Shown: positions 1 through 4,307 of the stretch, piece by piece | Layout of the letters: each line of letters begins with the position of its first letter | Position numbering within the stretch: the stretch's first letter is position 1 | From: a virus | Taxonomy: Duplodnaviria; Heunggongvirae; Uroviricota; Caudoviricetes | Virus record (IMG/VR): IMGVR_UViG_2585427776_000007 | Location: 1 to 4,307 of that record | Length of the DNA stretch: 4,307 bases | Reading direction: 5' to 3' (one strand) | Notes under the pieces: generated by a model | Told to the model about the DNA's origin: nothing | What the model saw: the letters and a program-made list of their open reading frames with translations, nothing else | Database searches by the model: none | Program-made: the position numbers and the translations under genes

Positions 1-447
1 ATACACAACGCCAGCACGTCCGCAGCGTTCGTCTGCAAAAGACTGAACCCACTCCACTGACGGATACAGTAACCTTATGGTTTTCAGTGCATAACTGATG
101 GCCCGTGATTCAGAGTTGCGGGGCATGTCGTCGTGTAGCCACATGCGGTTCAACTCCATATAGCCCCGGTTATCCGTTTCAAGCACGACACGACGACCAG
201 AGTTGGGGTTAAGGGCATATCCCCACTGGAGAACGCCAACCAGATCGCGTCCGCTGAATACTCCCAAGTGGAGGTAAGAGTTATTCACAAAACGGCGGGA
301 ATAGTGCTTTGTCTGAATAATTGTGCGGGCCAGCCAGCAGGATATGGTTTCAACGCGCAGCTCCTTTGAACCATAGCCAACAATCTGGCCTTCATACTCA
401 ATAACGCACGGTTTCGTCAGAATGCGTGATTTCTTCTCTTTTCCCAC
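1..447 (-). CDS. mom: DNA modification protein Mom, N-terminal part only (about 149 codons); the 3' end runs off the left edge of the window
   Basis: Minus-strand frame is open from position 1 up to 477 and translates to ...[55 protein letters not shown]...GVVY, recognised from memory as Mu Mom. It lies immediately downstream of com and overlaps it, as in Mu. Start is assigned to the GTG at 445-447 (minus), which is preceded by GGAG and sits in the hairpin described in findings; an in-frame ATG at 475-477 has no Shine-Dalgarno and is considered less likely. The ORF track omits it because it is edge-truncated. Confidence 0.8.
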
Positions 448-586
448 AATGTTTCTCCGTGGGATGCTCGCAGGCATTCAGCATTATGATATGACGTTTG
501 CAACGCGGACACCTGATTTCAATGTGATCAAAGGAATCCGCCTTAAATAACAGTTTGTTGCAGTTTTTACAGCGAATTGATTTCAT
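398..586 (-). CDS. com: Com, zinc-finger translational activator of mom (62 aa)
   Basis: The 62-aa [47 protein letters not shown]... matches Mu Com from memory, with the Cys4 motif CxxC...CxxC. A strong Shine-Dalgarno (AAGGAGGTGAG on the minus strand) lies directly upstream of the ATG at 586. Its 3' end overlaps the mom start. Confidence 0.9.
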
Positions 587-599
587 CTCACCTCCTTTG

Positions 600-700
600 C
601 ATCAATTCGCCACTATCTTAAAAAACATCGTGGGTTGAGTGTGGTTATTGGGGCATAATCGATCTGTATTGCCGATCGATTTGATTGATTCGATCGTCGT
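600..700 (-). promoter_or_regulatory. Pmom promoter and control region: candidate -10 TAAGAT (minus strand, 614-619), T6 run in the spacer (620-625), weak -35, dyad TTATGCCCCAATAA (645-658) as candidate C-activator site, and three GATC Dam sites at 661-664, 674-677 and 692-695
   Basis: All motifs are read directly from the sequence. The arrangement (activator-dependent promoter with a poor -35, a T-run spacer and an upstream cluster of three GATC sites) matches what is known for Mu mom regulation by C protein and Dam/OxyR. The exact transcription start is inferred (about 607), not observed. Confidence 0.6.
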
Positions 701-1262
701 TTTCTATATGCGTTCGTTTCGCGGGGTGTTTTTTATACAGAGTTGACAGAGCCACATCATAGATCAATGCAACCTGCTTGCGGGGGATTCCTTGTGCTAA
801 TAAACGCCCGGCCTGCTCCCATTCCGCTTTGGTTAGTTTAGGTGGTCGCCCACCAATACGGCCTTTATTTCTGGCGGCAGCAAGTCCAGCCATCGTTCGC
901 TCGATGATTAGTTCTCGTTCCATTTCAGCCAGGGCACCCATAACGTGGAAGAAAAAACGCCCCATTGGAGAAGATGTGTCTATGCTGTCGGTAAGACTGC
1001 GAAAATTAATCCCTCGCTCCCGTAGTTCCCCGACGAGGGAAATCAGATGTTTCATGCTTCGCCCGAGGCGATCCAGTTTCCAGACAACCAGTGTGTCACC
1101 TTTTTGAAGGCGCTTTAAAGCGCGTTTTAATCCAGGTCTGTCTGTCCTTGTTCCGCTTAATTTATCTTCAAATATTTGTTCACATCCTGCACAAACAAGA
1201 GCGTTTCGTTGCAGGTCTGTATTCTGGTCATTTGTTGATACCCTTACATAGCCAATCAGCAC
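645..1262 (-). CDS. gin: Gin-type serine DNA invertase (Gin/Hin/Cin/Pin family), 205 codons as read here with a GTG start
   Basis: N-terminus (M)LIGYVRVSTNDQNTDLQRNAL... carries the catalytic serine motif of small serine recombinases, and the C-terminal part has the helix-turn-helix region (GRPPKLTKAEWEQAGRLLAQGIPRKQVALIYDVALSTLYKK). A GGGAGA Shine-Dalgarno sits 6 nt upstream of the GTG at 1260-1262. Near-identical to Mu Gin as recalled. The canonical 193-aa protein would stop at 681-683; here that codon reads CAA (see findings). Confidence 0.95.
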   Translation of the reverse strand: MLIGYVRVSTNDQNTDLQRNALVCAGCEQIFEDKLSGTRTDRPGLKRALKRLQKGDTLVVWKLDRLGRSMKHLISLVGELRERGINFRSLTDSIDTSSPMGRFFFHVMGALAEMERELIIERTMAGLAAARNKGRIGGRPPKLTKAEWEQAGRLLAQGIPRKQVALIYDVALSTLYKKHPAKRTHIENDDRINQIDRQYRSIMPQ

Positions 1263-1316
1263 TCTGGATCTCCCGTTTAAAAGCGCAAATCATGCCATGC
1301 AGGCCGGAAACAGCCA

Positions 1317-1342
1317 TTATCTAAAACCTCGGTTTGCAGGAA
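1317..1342. other. gix recombination crossover site (26 bp: two 12-bp half-sites around a 2-bp core), gin-proximal boundary of the invertible G segment
   Basis: TTATCTAAAACC-TC-GGTTTGCAGGAA is read from the sequence and differs at about 2 positions from the Mu gix site as recalled (TTATCCAAAACCTCGGTTTACAGGAA). It lies 55 bp upstream of the gin start, and the Sv reading frame runs through it. Confidence 0.85.
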
Positions 1343-2356
1343 ACAGTAAACAAGGCTGGTAACGCCGTTCAGCGTTCCGGCGATAAAATGACCGGAGAAC
1401 TGAAAATTGGCATGATGAATGCGCTGCGAATTTTTAATGATGCCTTCGGTCTTATTTTCCGTCGTTCAGAAGAGTACCTTCATTTCATCCCTACGGCTGA
1501 AGGACAAGGCGAAAACGGTGATATCGGCCCATTAAGGCCATTCGCTATAAATCTGAGAACAGGTGCTATATCTGTCAGCCACGGGGCCAAAATTGATGGT
1601 GGGCTGGCGCTTGGTACAGATAACGCACTGGGCGGTAATTCCATTACTCTCGGAGATAACGACACTGGTATTAAACAGGGCGGCGACGGTGTCCTTTTAT
1701 TCTATTCAAATGGACAACTGGCATTTGGGCTTCAACCCGCATCTGCTGATTTTTATAAGCGGGTTGCATATATTCATCAGGGAATAATTCCTGATGGAAG
1801 TGGCGCATTTGCAGACCAGTTGAATAATGCCACCGCGCCTTTTGTTCAGACGCAGTTTGCCTGGAATCCCACTCCTGGTGGTCATTACGTGCCGATAGTT
1901 AAGGGCTTGTCCATTCGCAATGGACAGGGCTATCCCGGCGCGGTCAGCTTTGGGTATTTACTGACAGAACAGTATGGATTTCCGGTTCCATGTATTCATA
2001 TGCGTGGCGATGGCGGTAATGATGCTTTATGGCAGTTTAACCCGAACGATAAATCCTTTATTTCACCGGGTGCTCTTATTGCGGGTGGCGTCCGTTATAA
2101 CACCGATGGAAATATATTTGGTGGGTGCTGGGGTTCAAACTTAAATGATTACCTGAATAGTTCTTTTATCAGAAATGTGCGTCTGGGAGGCAGACGTTCT
2201 GACACATTATATCGCGGAGGACTTTGCGAACCAGGTAATGGTCATGTGACAACAGGATTGCAAATTATTGGTGAGGTTGATGGAGATGACTGGATGGTGT
2301 CACGACCACTACAAAAATACATTTCTGGTAACTGGTATAACGTTGAACAGGCATAG
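1334..2356 (+). CDS. S: Tail-fibre variable C-terminal cassette (Sv-like). It is a promoterless gene segment that needs fusion to the constant 5' part of the fibre gene across gix; in this orientation it is not fused
   Basis: 340-codon open frame beginning inside the gix site. The TTG 'start' in the ORF track is not a real initiation site, and the frame is closed by a TAA at 1322-1324 just upstream. The product is Gly/Asn-rich, typical of phage tail-fibre distal domains, and ends ...RPLQKYISGNWYNVEQA. It is followed 15 nt later by a tail-fibre assembly gene with AGGAG ahead of its ATG. Confidence 0.8.
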   Translation: MQETVNKAGNAVQRSGDKMTGELKIGMMNALRIFNDAFGLIFRRSEEYLHFIPTAEGQGENGDIGPLRPFAINLRTGAISVSHGAKIDGGLALGTDNALGGNSITLGDNDTGIKQGGDGVLLFYSNGQLAFGLQPASADFYKRVAYIHQGIIPDGSGAFADQLNNATAPFVQTQFAWNPTPGGHYVPIVKGLSIRNGQGYPGAVSFGYLLTEQYGFPVPCIHMRGDGGNDALWQFNPNDKSFISPGALIAGGVRYNTDGNIFGGCWGSNLNDYLNSSFIRNVRLGGRRSDTLYRGGLCEPGNGHVTTGLQIIGEVDGDDWMVSRPLQKYISGNWYNVEQA

Positions 2357-2371
2357 CCATCAGGAGAATAT

Positions 2372-2899
2372 ATGCAACATCTGAAAAATATTACCGCCGG
2401 AAACCCCAAAACCATTGAGCAGTATCAGCTTACGAAAAAAGCTGGCGTTATCTGGCTATATACAGAAGACGGTAAAAACTGGTATGACGAATTAAAAAAC
2501 TTTCAGGATGATACTTTAAAAATAGCTTATGACCAGAAGGGGATTATTCGTTGTATTGAGAAAGACGTATCAATGCTTAACCCTGACGGGTTAAGTGTTG
2601 TTGAGTTACCGAATATAACAGCCAACCGTCGCGCCGATATCTCGGGAAACTGGAAGTTTCTGGATGGTAAAGTAGTAAAGCGGGAATATACAAAACAGGA
2701 ACTGCAACAGCAGGCAGAGTTACAAAAAGCCGCTTTGCTTTCCGAAGCGGAGTCTGTGATTCAACCGCTGGAACGTGCTGTCAGACTGAATATGGCAACT
2801 GATGAGGAACGCACACGACTGGAATCATGGGAACGCTACAGCGTTATGGTCAGCCGTGTGGATACTGCAAAGCCTGAATGGCCACAGAAACCAGAATAA
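2372..2899 (+). CDS. U: Tail-fibre assembly protein (Tfa/U family), 175 aa
   Basis: [41 protein letters not shown]... has the conserved N-terminal region of Mu U / lambda Tfa-like chaperones. AGGAG lies at 2362-2366. Length 175 aa matches Mu U as recalled. Confidence 0.85.
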
Positions 2900-2908
2900 C
2901 AACAAATT

Positions 2909-2926
2909 AAGGCCCGTACGGGCCTT
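2909..2926. terminator. Bidirectional intrinsic terminator hairpin between the convergent U and U' genes
   Basis: Perfect palindrome GGCCCGTACGGGCC (2911-2924) flanked by AA on one side and a T-run (TTTTCT) on the other, placed exactly between two convergent stop codons. Confidence 0.7.
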
Positions 2927-2929
2927 TTC

Positions 2930-3463
2930 TTATTCTGGTGGTTCCGGGAATGTTACAGGAAGAACCGAGGTATCAGTTGTCTCAACCTGTTGCACGTATC
3001 GCATCCAGTTCATCAGTTGCTGTCTGTCTGAATCAGTGATAATCCCCAAAGTAAGCTGTGTTTGCCAGAACTGCGTTTTTTCTCTGGCCTGCTGTAATAA
3101 TATTTTTTTCTGGTTTTCCGTCTGTAGGCGCAACTCTTCTTCGGTATATACACGTTTAATGACTGCGCCATCTTTAAACATCCATTTACCTGAGTCGTCA
3201 GCACGCCGGTTGGCGGTAATATCAGGAATCTCAACGACGCTATAACCTTCAGGGTTAAGTGTGGAGGCATCTTTGGTTATGGCAACAATAATATTATTTT
3301 CATCGTAAACAATCTTTATGGTGTCTGTCTGAAATTTTTTCACTTCCTCATACCAGTTTTTTCCGTCCTCAGAGTAAAGCCAGATAACTCCGTGTTTCTT
3401 TGTTAACTCATACTGTTCCAGTGTTTTAGCATTACCCGCTTTTATGTTCTTTAAGTGCATCAT
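2930..3463 (-). CDS. U': Tail-fibre assembly protein (Tfa/U' family), 177 aa, partner of the alternative fibre cassette
   Basis: [41 protein letters not shown]... is a paralogue of the 175-aa U with a diverged C-terminal third. Its start ATG lies 1 nt after the TAA of the upstream S'v cassette (TAA-T-ATG), suggesting translational coupling. Confidence 0.85.
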
Positions 3464-3464
3464 A

Positions 3465-3805
3465 TTAAACGCTCGCTACATTATACCAGGTGCCATTTAT
3501 ATACTTTTGAACGGGTCTGTAATAAACGCCCGCTATATTATCGGCAGAGTTAGACCCTGTATCCTGAACATTAATACCAGACAATACATGACCTGAAGGG
3601 CACTGGAAATTCCATGTTTGCCAGTTGTTCACTCCATAATATTGCCGTGAACCAAGTCGAACATCTTTCACATAACGGGAATCAAAGTTACCGTAATCCG
3701 AGGGGTTAACACGCCCTGTAATATTTATGGTTTTATTACTTTGAATGCTTCCGGAGACAAAGCGCATAACATGGACGTTATTAGCATAAACATCCAGATT
3801 ACCAT
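3465..3805 (-). pseudogene. S': Alternative tail-fibre variable cassette (S'v-like), truncated at its 5' side by the IS insertion; only the C-terminal ~113 codons remain
   Basis: The minus-strand frame is open from the TAA at 3465-3467 up through 3805 (...[42 protein letters not shown]...[17 protein letters not shown]) and continues into the IS terminal sequence before hitting a stop at 3831-3833. The ATG at 3765-3767 reported by the ORF track is internal. The C-terminal motif is shared with the plus-strand Sv cassette. Confidence 0.75.
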
Positions 3806-3859
3806 TGAACCGCCCCGGGAATCCTGGAGACTAAACTTCCTGAGAAAGAGGTAAACAGG

Positions 3860-4186
3860 ATGACTAAAAATACTCGTTTTTCCCCCGAAGTCCGTCAACG
3901 GGCAGTCCGTATGGTTCTGGAAAGTCAGAGCGAATATGACTCACAATGGGCGACAATTTGTTCCATTGCTCCAAAGATTGGCTGTACGCCGGAGACTCTG
4001 CGTGTCTGGGTTCGCCAGCATGAGCGGGATACCGGGGGCGGTGATGGAGGGCTCACCACCGCTGAACGTCAGCGTCTGAAAGAGCTGGAACGTGAAAATC
4101 GTGAACTGCGCCGCAGTAACGATATCCTTCGCCAGGCTTCCGCTTATTTTGCGAAGGCGGAGTTCGACCGCCTCTGGAAAAAATGA
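3860..4186 (+). CDS. IS3-family transposase OrfA (helix-turn-helix/leucine zipper), IS629-like
   Basis: The 108-aa [111 protein letters not shown] ends at an A6 run (4178-4183) followed by TGA, the usual position of the -1 frameshift site. Confidence 0.9.
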
Positions 4187-4307
4187 TGCCACTGCTGGAT
4201 AAGCTGCGTGAGCAGTACGGGGTCGGACCGCTATGCAGCGAACTGCATATTGCCCCGTCAACGTATTACCACTGTCAGCAACAGCGACATCATCCGGATA
4301 AACGCAG
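4183..4307 (+). CDS. IS3-family transposase OrfB (catalytic part), 5' end only; -1 frame relative to orfA; continues beyond the window
   Basis: Open frame from ATG at 4183 to the window end ([41 protein letters not shown]...), overlapping the orfA stop in the -1 frame, as in IS3-family OrfAB arrangements. Confidence 0.8.

Follow-up and report, generated by a model that had tools for sequence, protein, structure and literature searches.

Does a Mu-like prophage still hold a functional tail fibre when the fibre cassette that seems to face the expression side has been cut by an insertion sequence (IS)? This question is raised by the stretch of 4,307 nucleotides analysed here (hereafter the window), in which an earlier note placed an intact variable cassette next to gin, in a silent position, and an IS-damaged cassette on the side of the constant part of the fibre gene. 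All of the elements described there were located in the window sequence (Table 1). The window represents the right-hand end of a transposable prophage of the Mu family and contains mom, com, gin and a Gin-invertible G-type segment. The system is of a type already known, and no new question on the Gin system itself arises from it.

Anatomy of the window

Table 1. Features of the window, with positions counted from its first letter.
Feature	Position	Strand	Remarks
mom, N-terminal 159 codons	1..477	-	Pfam Mom PF25680, E 2e-48; gene leaves the window at its left end
com, 62 aa, zinc-ribbon translational activator of mom	398..586	-	Pfam Zn_ribbon_Com PF10122; Com annotation in relatives
gin, serine DNA invertase, 205 aa, GTG start	645..1262	-	Transcription away from the invertible segment
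gin-proximal gix crossover site, 26 bp	1317..1342	.	Boundary of the invertible segment
Sv, intact variable fibre part, 340 codons from gix	1334..2356	+	Silent gin-proximal slot
Tail-fibre assembly protein (Tfa), 175 aa, partner of Sv	2372..2899	+	Caudo_TAP PF02413, E 8e-35
G+C-rich hairpin between the convergent Tfa genes	2909..2926	.	Terminator-like on both strands
Tfa, 177 aa, partner of the broken fibre	2930..3463	-	Caudo_TAP, E 1e-31
Second variable fibre part, last 113 codons	3465..3805	-	Severed from its own 5' portion
IS3-family element, left 502 bp of 1310 bp	3806..4307	+	IRL, orfA 3860-4186, frameshift region, orfB start 4186
Mosaic crossover zone	2135..3301	.	L030 and lambdoid/L050 types both identical to the window here

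The window was assigned to Muvirus on the basis of its gin, com and mom genes and of the homologues of Mu gp41-gp48 carried by the relatives that are identical to it over positions 1-3301. The host neighbour genes of these relatives differ in each genome. The position of mom matches that of Mom in Mu and in Esc31, and positions 1-1357 are 96.2% identical to Mu without a gap. Gin has the Resolvase and HTH_7 domains, with Ser9 kept. The identical 205-aa Gin is listed in 908 blocks of the collection, adjoining segments in both orientations.

The intact variable part, Sv, starts inside the gin-proximal gix (GGT TTG CAG GAA, for G L Q E) and reads away from gin. An in-frame TAA was found just upstream of Sv at 1322-1324, no promoter-like site was detected upstream of Sv by a simple scan, and no constant fibre part lies between gin and Sv. 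The claim that this cassette is unfused was thus confirmed. The two convergent cassettes were confirmed as well, the plus strand carrying Sv with the 175-aa Tfa and the minus strand a truncated tip with the 177-aa Tfa. The sole start remaining in the broken fibre gene is the ATG at 3767, which opens an ORF of 100 aa.

Gin recombines two inverted 26-bp gix sites. The proximal site of the window, TTATCTAAAACC-TC-GGTTTGCAGGAA, has no mismatches to the gin-proximal gix of L001 and L009-L012, and differs from that of Mu at 2 of the 26 positions. A second gix was not found in the window at up to six mismatches. An inverted match between 1321-1334 and 2963-2976 was considered as an internal second crossover site and rejected: only the 9-bp core AACCGAGGT is common to the two, and 11 of the 24 half-site positions fit in a hand alignment. 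Since the candidate at 2963-2976 was not picked up at up to six mismatches, this match is most likely due to chance.

The left end of the IS starts at 3806 with TGAACCGCCCCGGG... and the part within the window is 100% identical, over 502 bp, to complete copies of 1310 bp, which have TGAACCGCCCCGGG ends and 3-bp target duplications. The orfA product has an HTH_Tnp_1 domain, and the ALIL pseudoknot (RF01497) was detected at 4141-4257 with a score of 120 bits. The orfA and orfB frames with the frameshift pseudoknot, the left inverted repeat at 3806 and the 3-bp duplications of the complete copies place the element in the IS3 family and in the IS629 type. The annotation reads 'IS3 family transposase' only, and it is by its sequence that the element is taken to be of the IS629/IS1203 type.

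Orientation of the segment and the far side of the IS

The orientation was analyzed on the basis of the relatives. The Mu-like relatives that were fetched all share one gene order, namely gp48, S (the constant part, Sc, with a variable part), Tfa, a convergent Tfa with a variable part, gix, gin, com and mom, and the constant part is on the gin-distal side in every one of them. Since Sc is gin-distal in the relatives, the gin-proximal cassette of the window would be silent, and the IS-cut cassette would occupy the slot that faces the constant part. The layout of these relatives thus supports the topology proposed earlier, in which the constant part lies on the IS side with the broken cassette facing it. 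Mu-type Sc fused to variable parts that span the region around the IS insertion point was also found (P0001). In addition, the exact tip of the broken cassette is intact in a Mu-like prophage with the same orientation, where it terminates a 529-aa S (P0010 of L050).

Both orientations were observed among ten genomes with the identical 205-aa Gin. Sv adjoins gin, as in the window, in four of them (L009, L010, L011 and L018), and is joined to Sc in four (L012, L014, L016 and L017). Sc (171 aa) is in frame with the same Sv in L012, L016 and L017, resulting in a 511-aa fibre that is followed by the 175-aa Tfa, while the Sc-Sv fusion of L014 is split by frameshifts. In L009, Sc is fused to the other cassette, giving an S of 460 aa. 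Positions 1-1371 of the window are 99.9% identical to L012 and L014 despite the flipped segment of these two. When the Sv of the window was compared with one of these fusions, the 511-aa S of L012, the identity to its residues 172-511 was 98.5%. The reading frame across gix (...FIQNLG/LQETVN...) is kept in the relatives with the Sc-Sv fusion, and the same is true of Mu. The three genomes with an in-frame fusion support the proposal that inversion would restore an intact pair if the distal gix is intact. L020 and L024, which carry the same type of segment, differ by an exchange of gix half-sites, and this shows that the crossover took place at the central dinucleotide. Induced Mu lysates contain both orientations (PMC4406740).

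The Mu-like prophages L030-L038, as well as L009-L011 and Esc31, have the orientation of the window and show no differences from it over 1-3301. They are inserted at many different chromosomal sites and differ from the window in the expressed cassette, which has another, intact tip (S of 460 aa) and no IS. The absence of differences over 1-3301 from a lineage found at many chromosomal sites points to recent activity. To call the prophage defective or decaying, as the earlier note tentatively did, was therefore an overstatement: gin and the proximal gix are intact, 1-3301 is that of the active lineage, and the assembled orientation is only one state of the switch. For annotation, this means that a prophage fibre gene that seems dead in an assembly may represent one switch state only.

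In our judgement, the locus is probably a Mu-type Gin switch in which the intact cassette is silent, the IS-cut cassette is in the expressed slot and a flip restores the fibre, the tip of the broken cassette having been gained by recombination. Sc would be located outside the segment on the gin-distal side, and the adjoining variable part would be fused to it in frame across gix. Expression of the cassette adjoining Sc, and of the assembly chaperone belonging to it, would come from the late tail operon, and the other cassette would have neither a start nor a promoter. In the assembled state, Sv and the 175-aa Tfa would occupy the silent gin-proximal slot, and the cassette in the expressed slot, cut by the IS 113 codons before its stop, would give a fibre without the receptor-binding tip. 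A single Gin flip would then produce the Sc-Sv fusion, a functional 511-aa fibre. Since one cassette is cut by the IS and the other is intact, the system would act as an on/off switch of infectivity and not as a switch between two host ranges. The anatomy of the window, the mosaic, and the layout with its two orientations in the relatives have been shown here, whereas two points are inferred for the source genome: past the IS there should be Sc and an intact distal gix, and Gin should flip the segment at its enlarged size of about 4.3 kb. Judging from the relatives, in which the two gix sites are about 3.0-3.1 kb apart, the distal gix is expected about 550-620 bp after the IS ends, which would put it about 1.4 kb outside the window.

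It is worth considering that the IS might have done more than interrupt the gene. The insertion could have been followed by an IS-mediated deletion or inversion, with loss of Sc, of the distal gix and of the remaining variable part, in which case no flip would occur and the prophage would be permanently fibre-less. IS629 is found mostly in prophages, in which it generates deletions and diversity (PMC3271280), and several other copies of this IS without matching target duplications were present among the fetched loci (L044, L045, L048 and L049). Against this, no sign of a deletion was seen within the window: the left IS junction at 3805/3806 is a clean insertion at which the uninterrupted sequence of the relatives runs on, and the sequence from mom through 3301 is identical to that of the active lineage. 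We consider such a frozen remnant very unlikely. A simple insertion would give, beyond the window, the right IS end (...CCCGGGGCGGTTCA), a CAT duplication and then the continuation of the fibre gene, CGCCATTTTGTTTAAAGCC... / CGCCATTTTGTTTAAAGCCCGTGTC.

The far side was sought by several searches. Both the window in full and the junction by itself were used to search the 5,426 complete E. coli genomes; none of them joins a Mu-type mom-com-gin to the broken tip, and none has the IS junction. The fibre/IS junction was also looked for in genome_contigs and metagenome_contigs, with 0 matches. Exact-protein look-ups were made with the 100-aa truncated ORF, Gin, the 177-aa Tfa, the 322-aa Sv and the IS orfA, and these found the same IS junction only in L005 and L006. 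Each of the two contigs is about 2.5 kb long, ends at gix and within the IS, and has lambdoid/L012-type SNPs on the Sv side. The 342-aa cut gene of L006 was considered as an Sc fusion and rejected; the L006 contig simply stops inside gix. If a 3-bp duplication is assumed, the product predicted for the far side is the fibre up to ...FKQNGD with a read-through of 53 aa into the right IS end. This product was used as a query, and no protein covering the 53-aa read-through tail was found. None of the searches turned up the distal gix, Sc or the right IS junction of the source genome.

Mosaic structure of the segment

Comparison of the window with its two closest types showed where the types meet. 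The window has no differences from the Mu-like L030 over 1-3301, the first difference being at 3302, where it has the lambdoid-type A. From the lambdoid L024 it has no differences over 2135-3805, the last difference being at 2134, where it has the Mu-type T. Left of the 2135-3301 zone, the Mu-like L030 type is the only one that matches the window; right of it, this holds for the lambdoid/L050 type alone. The exact stretch common to both types is 1,167 bp long and consists of the 175-aa Tfa gene flanked by the 3' part of Sv on one side and by most of the 177-aa Tfa gene on the other. The segment is a mosaic, and the tip that bears the IS belongs to a type known otherwise from segments of lambdoid prophages. 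The broken tip is 98-99% identical to the C-termini of a 941-aa lambdoid Stf (L002) and of a 526-aa protein of L022. Sv is also 98.5% identical to the C-terminus of the 968-aa Stf of L020, and positions 1072-3805 are 98.9-99.4% identical to lambdoid Stf segments. For 3135-3686, the DNA identity to H/G of P2 is 93.7%. Owing to the mosaic tip, the sequence beyond the IS is less certain than the earlier note assumed.

According to the preferred reading, the broken cassette would have entered by homologous recombination in the 1.17-kb core that is common with the lambdoid-type segment. A more general idea, which we offer as possible but doubtful, is that this core is a recombination hub through which unrelated co-resident prophages trade tips, and that an IS-inactivated tip moved in this way from a lambdoid remnant to an otherwise pristine and recently active Mu-like phage, whose switch between two host ranges would thereby have become a phase-variable on/off switch of virion infectivity.

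Since the far side was not recovered, the join is absent from the complete E. coli genomes searched, and the junction-bearing contigs L005 and L006 have lambdoid/L012-type SNPs and end at gix, what lies beyond the IS could also be a lambdoid Stf, or the join itself could have arisen in assembly. The first of these would result from a rearrangement between prophages, in which a single crossover in the 1.17-kb core between the Mu-like prophage and a co-resident lambdoid one with an IS-carrying Stf tip caused a chromosomal inversion or deletion. The Mu-like prophage would then be split, and an Stf constant part of the lambdoid type and lambda-type tail genes would be located beyond the IS. The window is indeed identical to the Mu type up to 3301 and, between 2135 and the IS, to the lambdoid type, and the SNPs of L005 and L006, at the same IS junction, could be read in the same way. 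L050, in which a Mu-like tail module is joined to a lambdoid-type segment and a truncated invertase remnant, indicates that such hybrid joints occur in assemblies. The same data, however, fit a conversion patch without any chromosomal rearrangement, and Mu-type Sc fused to related variable parts exists (P0001 and P0111). The L024-type SNPs on the Sv side are also present in the Mu-like prophage L012, and L005 and L006 are therefore not necessarily lambdoid. We regard this rearrangement as rather unlikely.

The second possibility is an assembly chimera, in which an intact prophage of the L030 type and a separate lambdoid IS-cut segment were misjoined through the exact 1,167-bp repeat. The perfect identity to one type on each side of this exact stretch is as expected for such a misjoin. 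The joined haplotype, moreover, is absent from the 5,426 complete E. coli genomes and was not among the longest contigs examined for any window protein. On the other hand, short-read assemblers usually break at such repeats, as those of L005 and L006 do at gix, and the segment family is visibly mosaic in nature. In addition, the window contains 502 bp of a multicopy IS, an extent that points to long reads or to a finished sequence. A chimera seems unlikely to us. The mosaic is a warning that either real rearrangements or chimeras of assembly can arise from kilobase-long identical cores in such segments. It is also a further concrete example of the exchange of tail-fibre cassettes between unrelated prophages, with a join free of differences.

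Comparison with known systems

The window shares with the G segment of Mu the order mom, com, gin, gix and two convergent cassettes, each of a variable part and a Tfa. Over 193 aa, its Gin has 99.5% identity to Mu Gin, from which it differs by a 12-aa C-terminal extension. The window Sv is only 40% identical to the tip of Mu S.

The Mu names for the two cassettes were more difficult to apply. The earlier note took the 175-aa protein as U and the 177-aa protein as U', and on this basis labelled the arrangement as G(-)-type. Length speaks for the same assignment, with the 175-aa protein resembling U and the 177-aa protein U'. Comparison with the Mu proteins gave no clean orthology: both window proteins are domain-swapped relative to U and U'. 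The 175-aa Tfa is 77% identical to Mu U overall; its C-terminal domain is U-like (90% vs 33% to U'), whereas its N-terminal domain is slightly nearer to U' (72% vs 69% to U). In the 177-aa Tfa, the C-terminal domain is U'-like (64% vs 35% to U), whereas the N-terminal domain is closest to U (86% vs 71% to U'). In the passage of PMC9608196 that cites North et al., the N-terminal domain of Tfa is described as the fibre-binding one. The broken tip is 49% identical to the tip of Mu S and 34% to that of S'. Since the Tfa domains have conflicting affinities and the tip leans towards S, the cassettes are not orthologues of either Mu pair. Assignment by protein length was dropped, and the G(-)-type label was not borne out. 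It is thus unsafe to transfer the names G(+)/G(-) and U/U' by protein length.

The IS shares with IS629/IS1203 the length of 1310 bp, the TGAACCGCCCCGGG ends, the 3-bp duplications, orfA and orfB with the frameshift pseudoknot, and the preference for prophages; the difference is that the window holds the left 502 bp only.

The lambdoid Stf segment next to trp (of the ST131 type, e.g. JJ1886, with an e14 P-segment/Pin-like character) has the same two cassettes and the same gix core, and it is found in both orientations. It differs from the window in its constant part, which is a 628-residue N-terminus of the lambda Stf type, and in its invertase, which is a 60-codon remnant. Since only this remnant is present, inversion in the lambdoid segment must be driven in trans, and Pin-type invertases are reported to act in trans (PMC12529663).

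Orientation of the fibre segment

The gene map of the window is given in the table below. The coordinates and description in the earlier note were correct, including the start of Sv, a variable fibre part, at gix (the 26-bp crossover site of Gin) and the stop codon upstream of it. Sv starts inside gix and reads G-L-Q-E-T-V-N, with TAA in frame at 1322-1324. A scan of the window that allowed up to 6 mismatches found no second gix. A weak gix-like sequence at 2955-2980 (core AACCGAGGT), in the 3' end of the gene for the 177-aa Tfa and inverted relative to the real gix, gave a half-site match of 11/24 by hand alignment and is most likely due to chance.

Features of the window (Tfa, tail-fibre assembly protein)
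Feature	Position	Strand
mom, first 159 codons	1-477	minus
com	398-586	minus
gin, 205 aa	645-1262	minus
gix, 26 bp	1317-1342	
Sv, 340-codon open frame	1334-2356	plus
Tfa, 175 aa	2372-2899	plus
Hairpin, terminator-like	2909-2926	both
Tfa, 177 aa	2930-3463	minus
Second fibre, last 113 codons	3465-3805	minus
IS left end, 502 bp to window end	from 3806	

In Mu, the gene order is gp48, S, U, the reversed U' and S'v, gin, com and mom. This order is kept in the Mu-like relative Esc31, in ten genomes with an identical 205-aa Gin and in ten with an identical 322-aa Sv product. Since the constant part of the fibre (Sc) was distal to gin in every one of these genomes, Mu included, the gin-proximal cassette of the window would be silent, and the IS-cut cassette would face the constant part. 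The central inference of the earlier note, which places expression on the IS side, was thus supported by comparison with relatives, the window itself stopping 502 bp into the IS.

The same note had labelled this arrangement G(-)-type on condition that U is the 175-aa and U' the 177-aa protein, which are their lengths in the Mu reference. Over its full length, the 175-aa Tfa of the window showed 77% to U versus 56% to U', and the 177-aa Tfa was marginally closer to U' (68%) than to U (65%). The two Tfa domains were then compared separately, with the split at residue 105. PMC9608196, with reference to the TfaMu structure paper, assigns fibre binding to the N-terminal domain and trimerisation to the C-terminal one. 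The N-terminal domain showed 69% to U and 72% to U' in the 175-aa Tfa, and 86% and 71% in the 177-aa Tfa; the corresponding values for the C-terminal domain were 90% and 33%, and 35% and 64%. The broken fibre tip showed 49% identity to the Mu S tip versus 34% to S', and 93.7% DNA identity to P2 H/G. The broken cassette is closer to the Mu G(+) pair in its specificity-determining parts and closer to U' in length and C-terminal domain. The labels are not transferable, and the G(-) assignment was not supported.

Mosaic origin of the broken cassette

The main addition to the earlier note is that the broken cassette is of mosaic origin. Compared with the Mu-like loci L030-L038, the window showed no differences over 1-3301; divergence was sharp after that, the first difference being at 3302 and 267 having accumulated by 3785. 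Compared with the lambdoid locus L024, it showed 26 differences over 1072-2134 and none over 2135-3805. Across 2135-3301 (1,167 bp) the window matches both types without a difference, and a crossover must lie within this zone. A crossover with a lambdoid prophage, which would place a lambda-type Stf past the IS, survives as an explanation, as does a misassembly across the 1.17-kb repeat.

The tip bearing the IS was seen intact in the 941-aa Stf of lambdoid prophages (L002, L024) and in one divergent Mu-like prophage, where a 529-aa S is followed by the 177-aa Tfa in the window orientation (P0010, locus L050). Mu-type Sc also occurs in fusion with a related variable part containing the IS insertion point (P0001, locus L029). 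In none of 5,426 complete E. coli genomes was this tip joined to Mu-type mom-com-gin, the best match extending only to 3519, and none contained the fibre/IS junction. Elsewhere the junction was found only in two short contigs (L005, L006), whose SNPs on the Sv side are of L024/L012 type and which end at gix. Most parsimoniously, a single IS insertion would have occurred, its flanks being reshuffled later by homologous recombination.

Searches with the junction, the proteins and the predicted far-side product recovered no sequence past the IS in this genome. Our best estimate is a Mu-like prophage whose tip was converted and in which both Sc and the distal gix lie past the IS; this gix would be expected about 590 bp beyond it. 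An IS-mediated deletion also survives as an alternative. The IS side still holds as the expression side whether the tip was converted or a lambdoid crossover took place.

Two possibly recombinant structures were observed. At 8001-11971 of L050, the tail module of divergent Mu-like type, with its 529-aa S, adjoins a segment and truncated-invertase remnant with lambdoid-type SNPs. The join coincides with the end of a 5.2-Mb contig, and may reflect either recombination between prophages or a break in the assembly where the site is heterogeneous. The 443-aa P0121 of Shigella sonnei, annotated 'bacteriophage tail protein', combines an Sv-like start, an Stf constant piece, a gix-encoded GLRELG and the other variable part, and looks like a product of aberrant recombination between cassettes.

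The insertion sequence and the cut fibre

The sequence from 3806 to 4307 is 100% identical to complete IS copies in other genomes, which are 1310 bp long with TGAACCGCCCCGGG inverted repeats as ends; 3-bp duplications flank four of the eight copies examined. Its orfA encodes an HTH_Tnp_1 domain, and an ALIL frameshift pseudoknot (Rfam RF01497, 120 bits) lies at 4141-4257, in the orfA/orfB overlap. A close copy in RefSeq is annotated no further than 'IS3 family transposase, programmed frameshift'; we take the element to be IS629/IS1203. IS629 makes 3-4-bp duplications and prefers prophages (62% of copies in O157; PMC3271280), which agrees with this identification.

By hand reading, the fibre-strand frame upstream of 3805 runs into TAG within the IS end. 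The sole remaining start codon of the cut fibre is the ATG at 3767, giving a 100-aa ORF. The same tip is broken independently in three other loci within about 20 bp of this site (equivalent to window 3785-3805), though these were found with the 100-aa ORF as query, which biases towards this spot. It is interrupted by an IS end, presumably of IS1, in L004 (1-29) and by another, presumably of IS903/IS102 type, in L007 (1-53), and carries a 1-bp deletion (GGGC to GGC) around 80-95 of L008.

Inversion and the state of the prophage

The Gin of the window is 99.5% identical to Mu Gin across the latter's 193 residues and retains Ser9. The exact 205-aa protein is widespread, with entries in 908 blocks of the collection. 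Within 645-700, its 12 extra codons extend into the com/mom upstream region, where GATC occurs at 661, 674 and 692; this is presumably the Dam/OxyR-controlled regulatory region of mom.

Ten loci were retrieved through Gin, an unbiased query. Sv adjoins gin as in the window in four (L009, L010, L011, L018) and is joined to Sc in four (L012, L014, L016, L017); the other two carry other cassettes. L012 and L014 are 99.9% identical to window 1-1371, and their segment matches in the opposite orientation. The 171-aa Sc of L012 ends in FIQNLG and runs in frame into LQETVNKAGN to give a 511-aa S, followed by the 175-aa Tfa, and the variable part of this S is 98.5% identical to the Sv of the window. 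Lambdoid prophages carry the same segment type in both orientations (L020 versus L024; 9041-9066, 12122-12147); the outer gix half-sites stay put and the inner half-sites travel along with it, the pattern that a crossover at the central dinucleotide should leave. Their own invertase is only a 60-codon remnant, so that the invertase of another prophage must drive inversion in trans, as reported for PinQ acting on e14 (PMC12529663).

Lysates of induced Mu lysogens contain both orientations in equal ratios (PMC4406740). Together with the relatives, this suggests that the assembled orientation is best read as one state of the switch and not as a fixed defect. One flip by Gin would join Sc to Sv and the 175-aa Tfa, if the distal gix is intact. 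Since the spacing of gix sites is flexible, a 1.3-kb insert within the segment would probably be tolerated.

The earlier note had suggested a defective or decaying prophage. The IS is indeed a lesion, and the only one within the window. From mom to 3301, the sequence does not differ from that of a lineage whose neighbouring host genes vary from genome to genome, which is the signature of recent transposition. Decay is therefore not established, and that part of the claim was overstated. The window represents a known kind of system, in which a prophage of the Mu family carries a Gin-type invertible fibre switch, here with routine damage.
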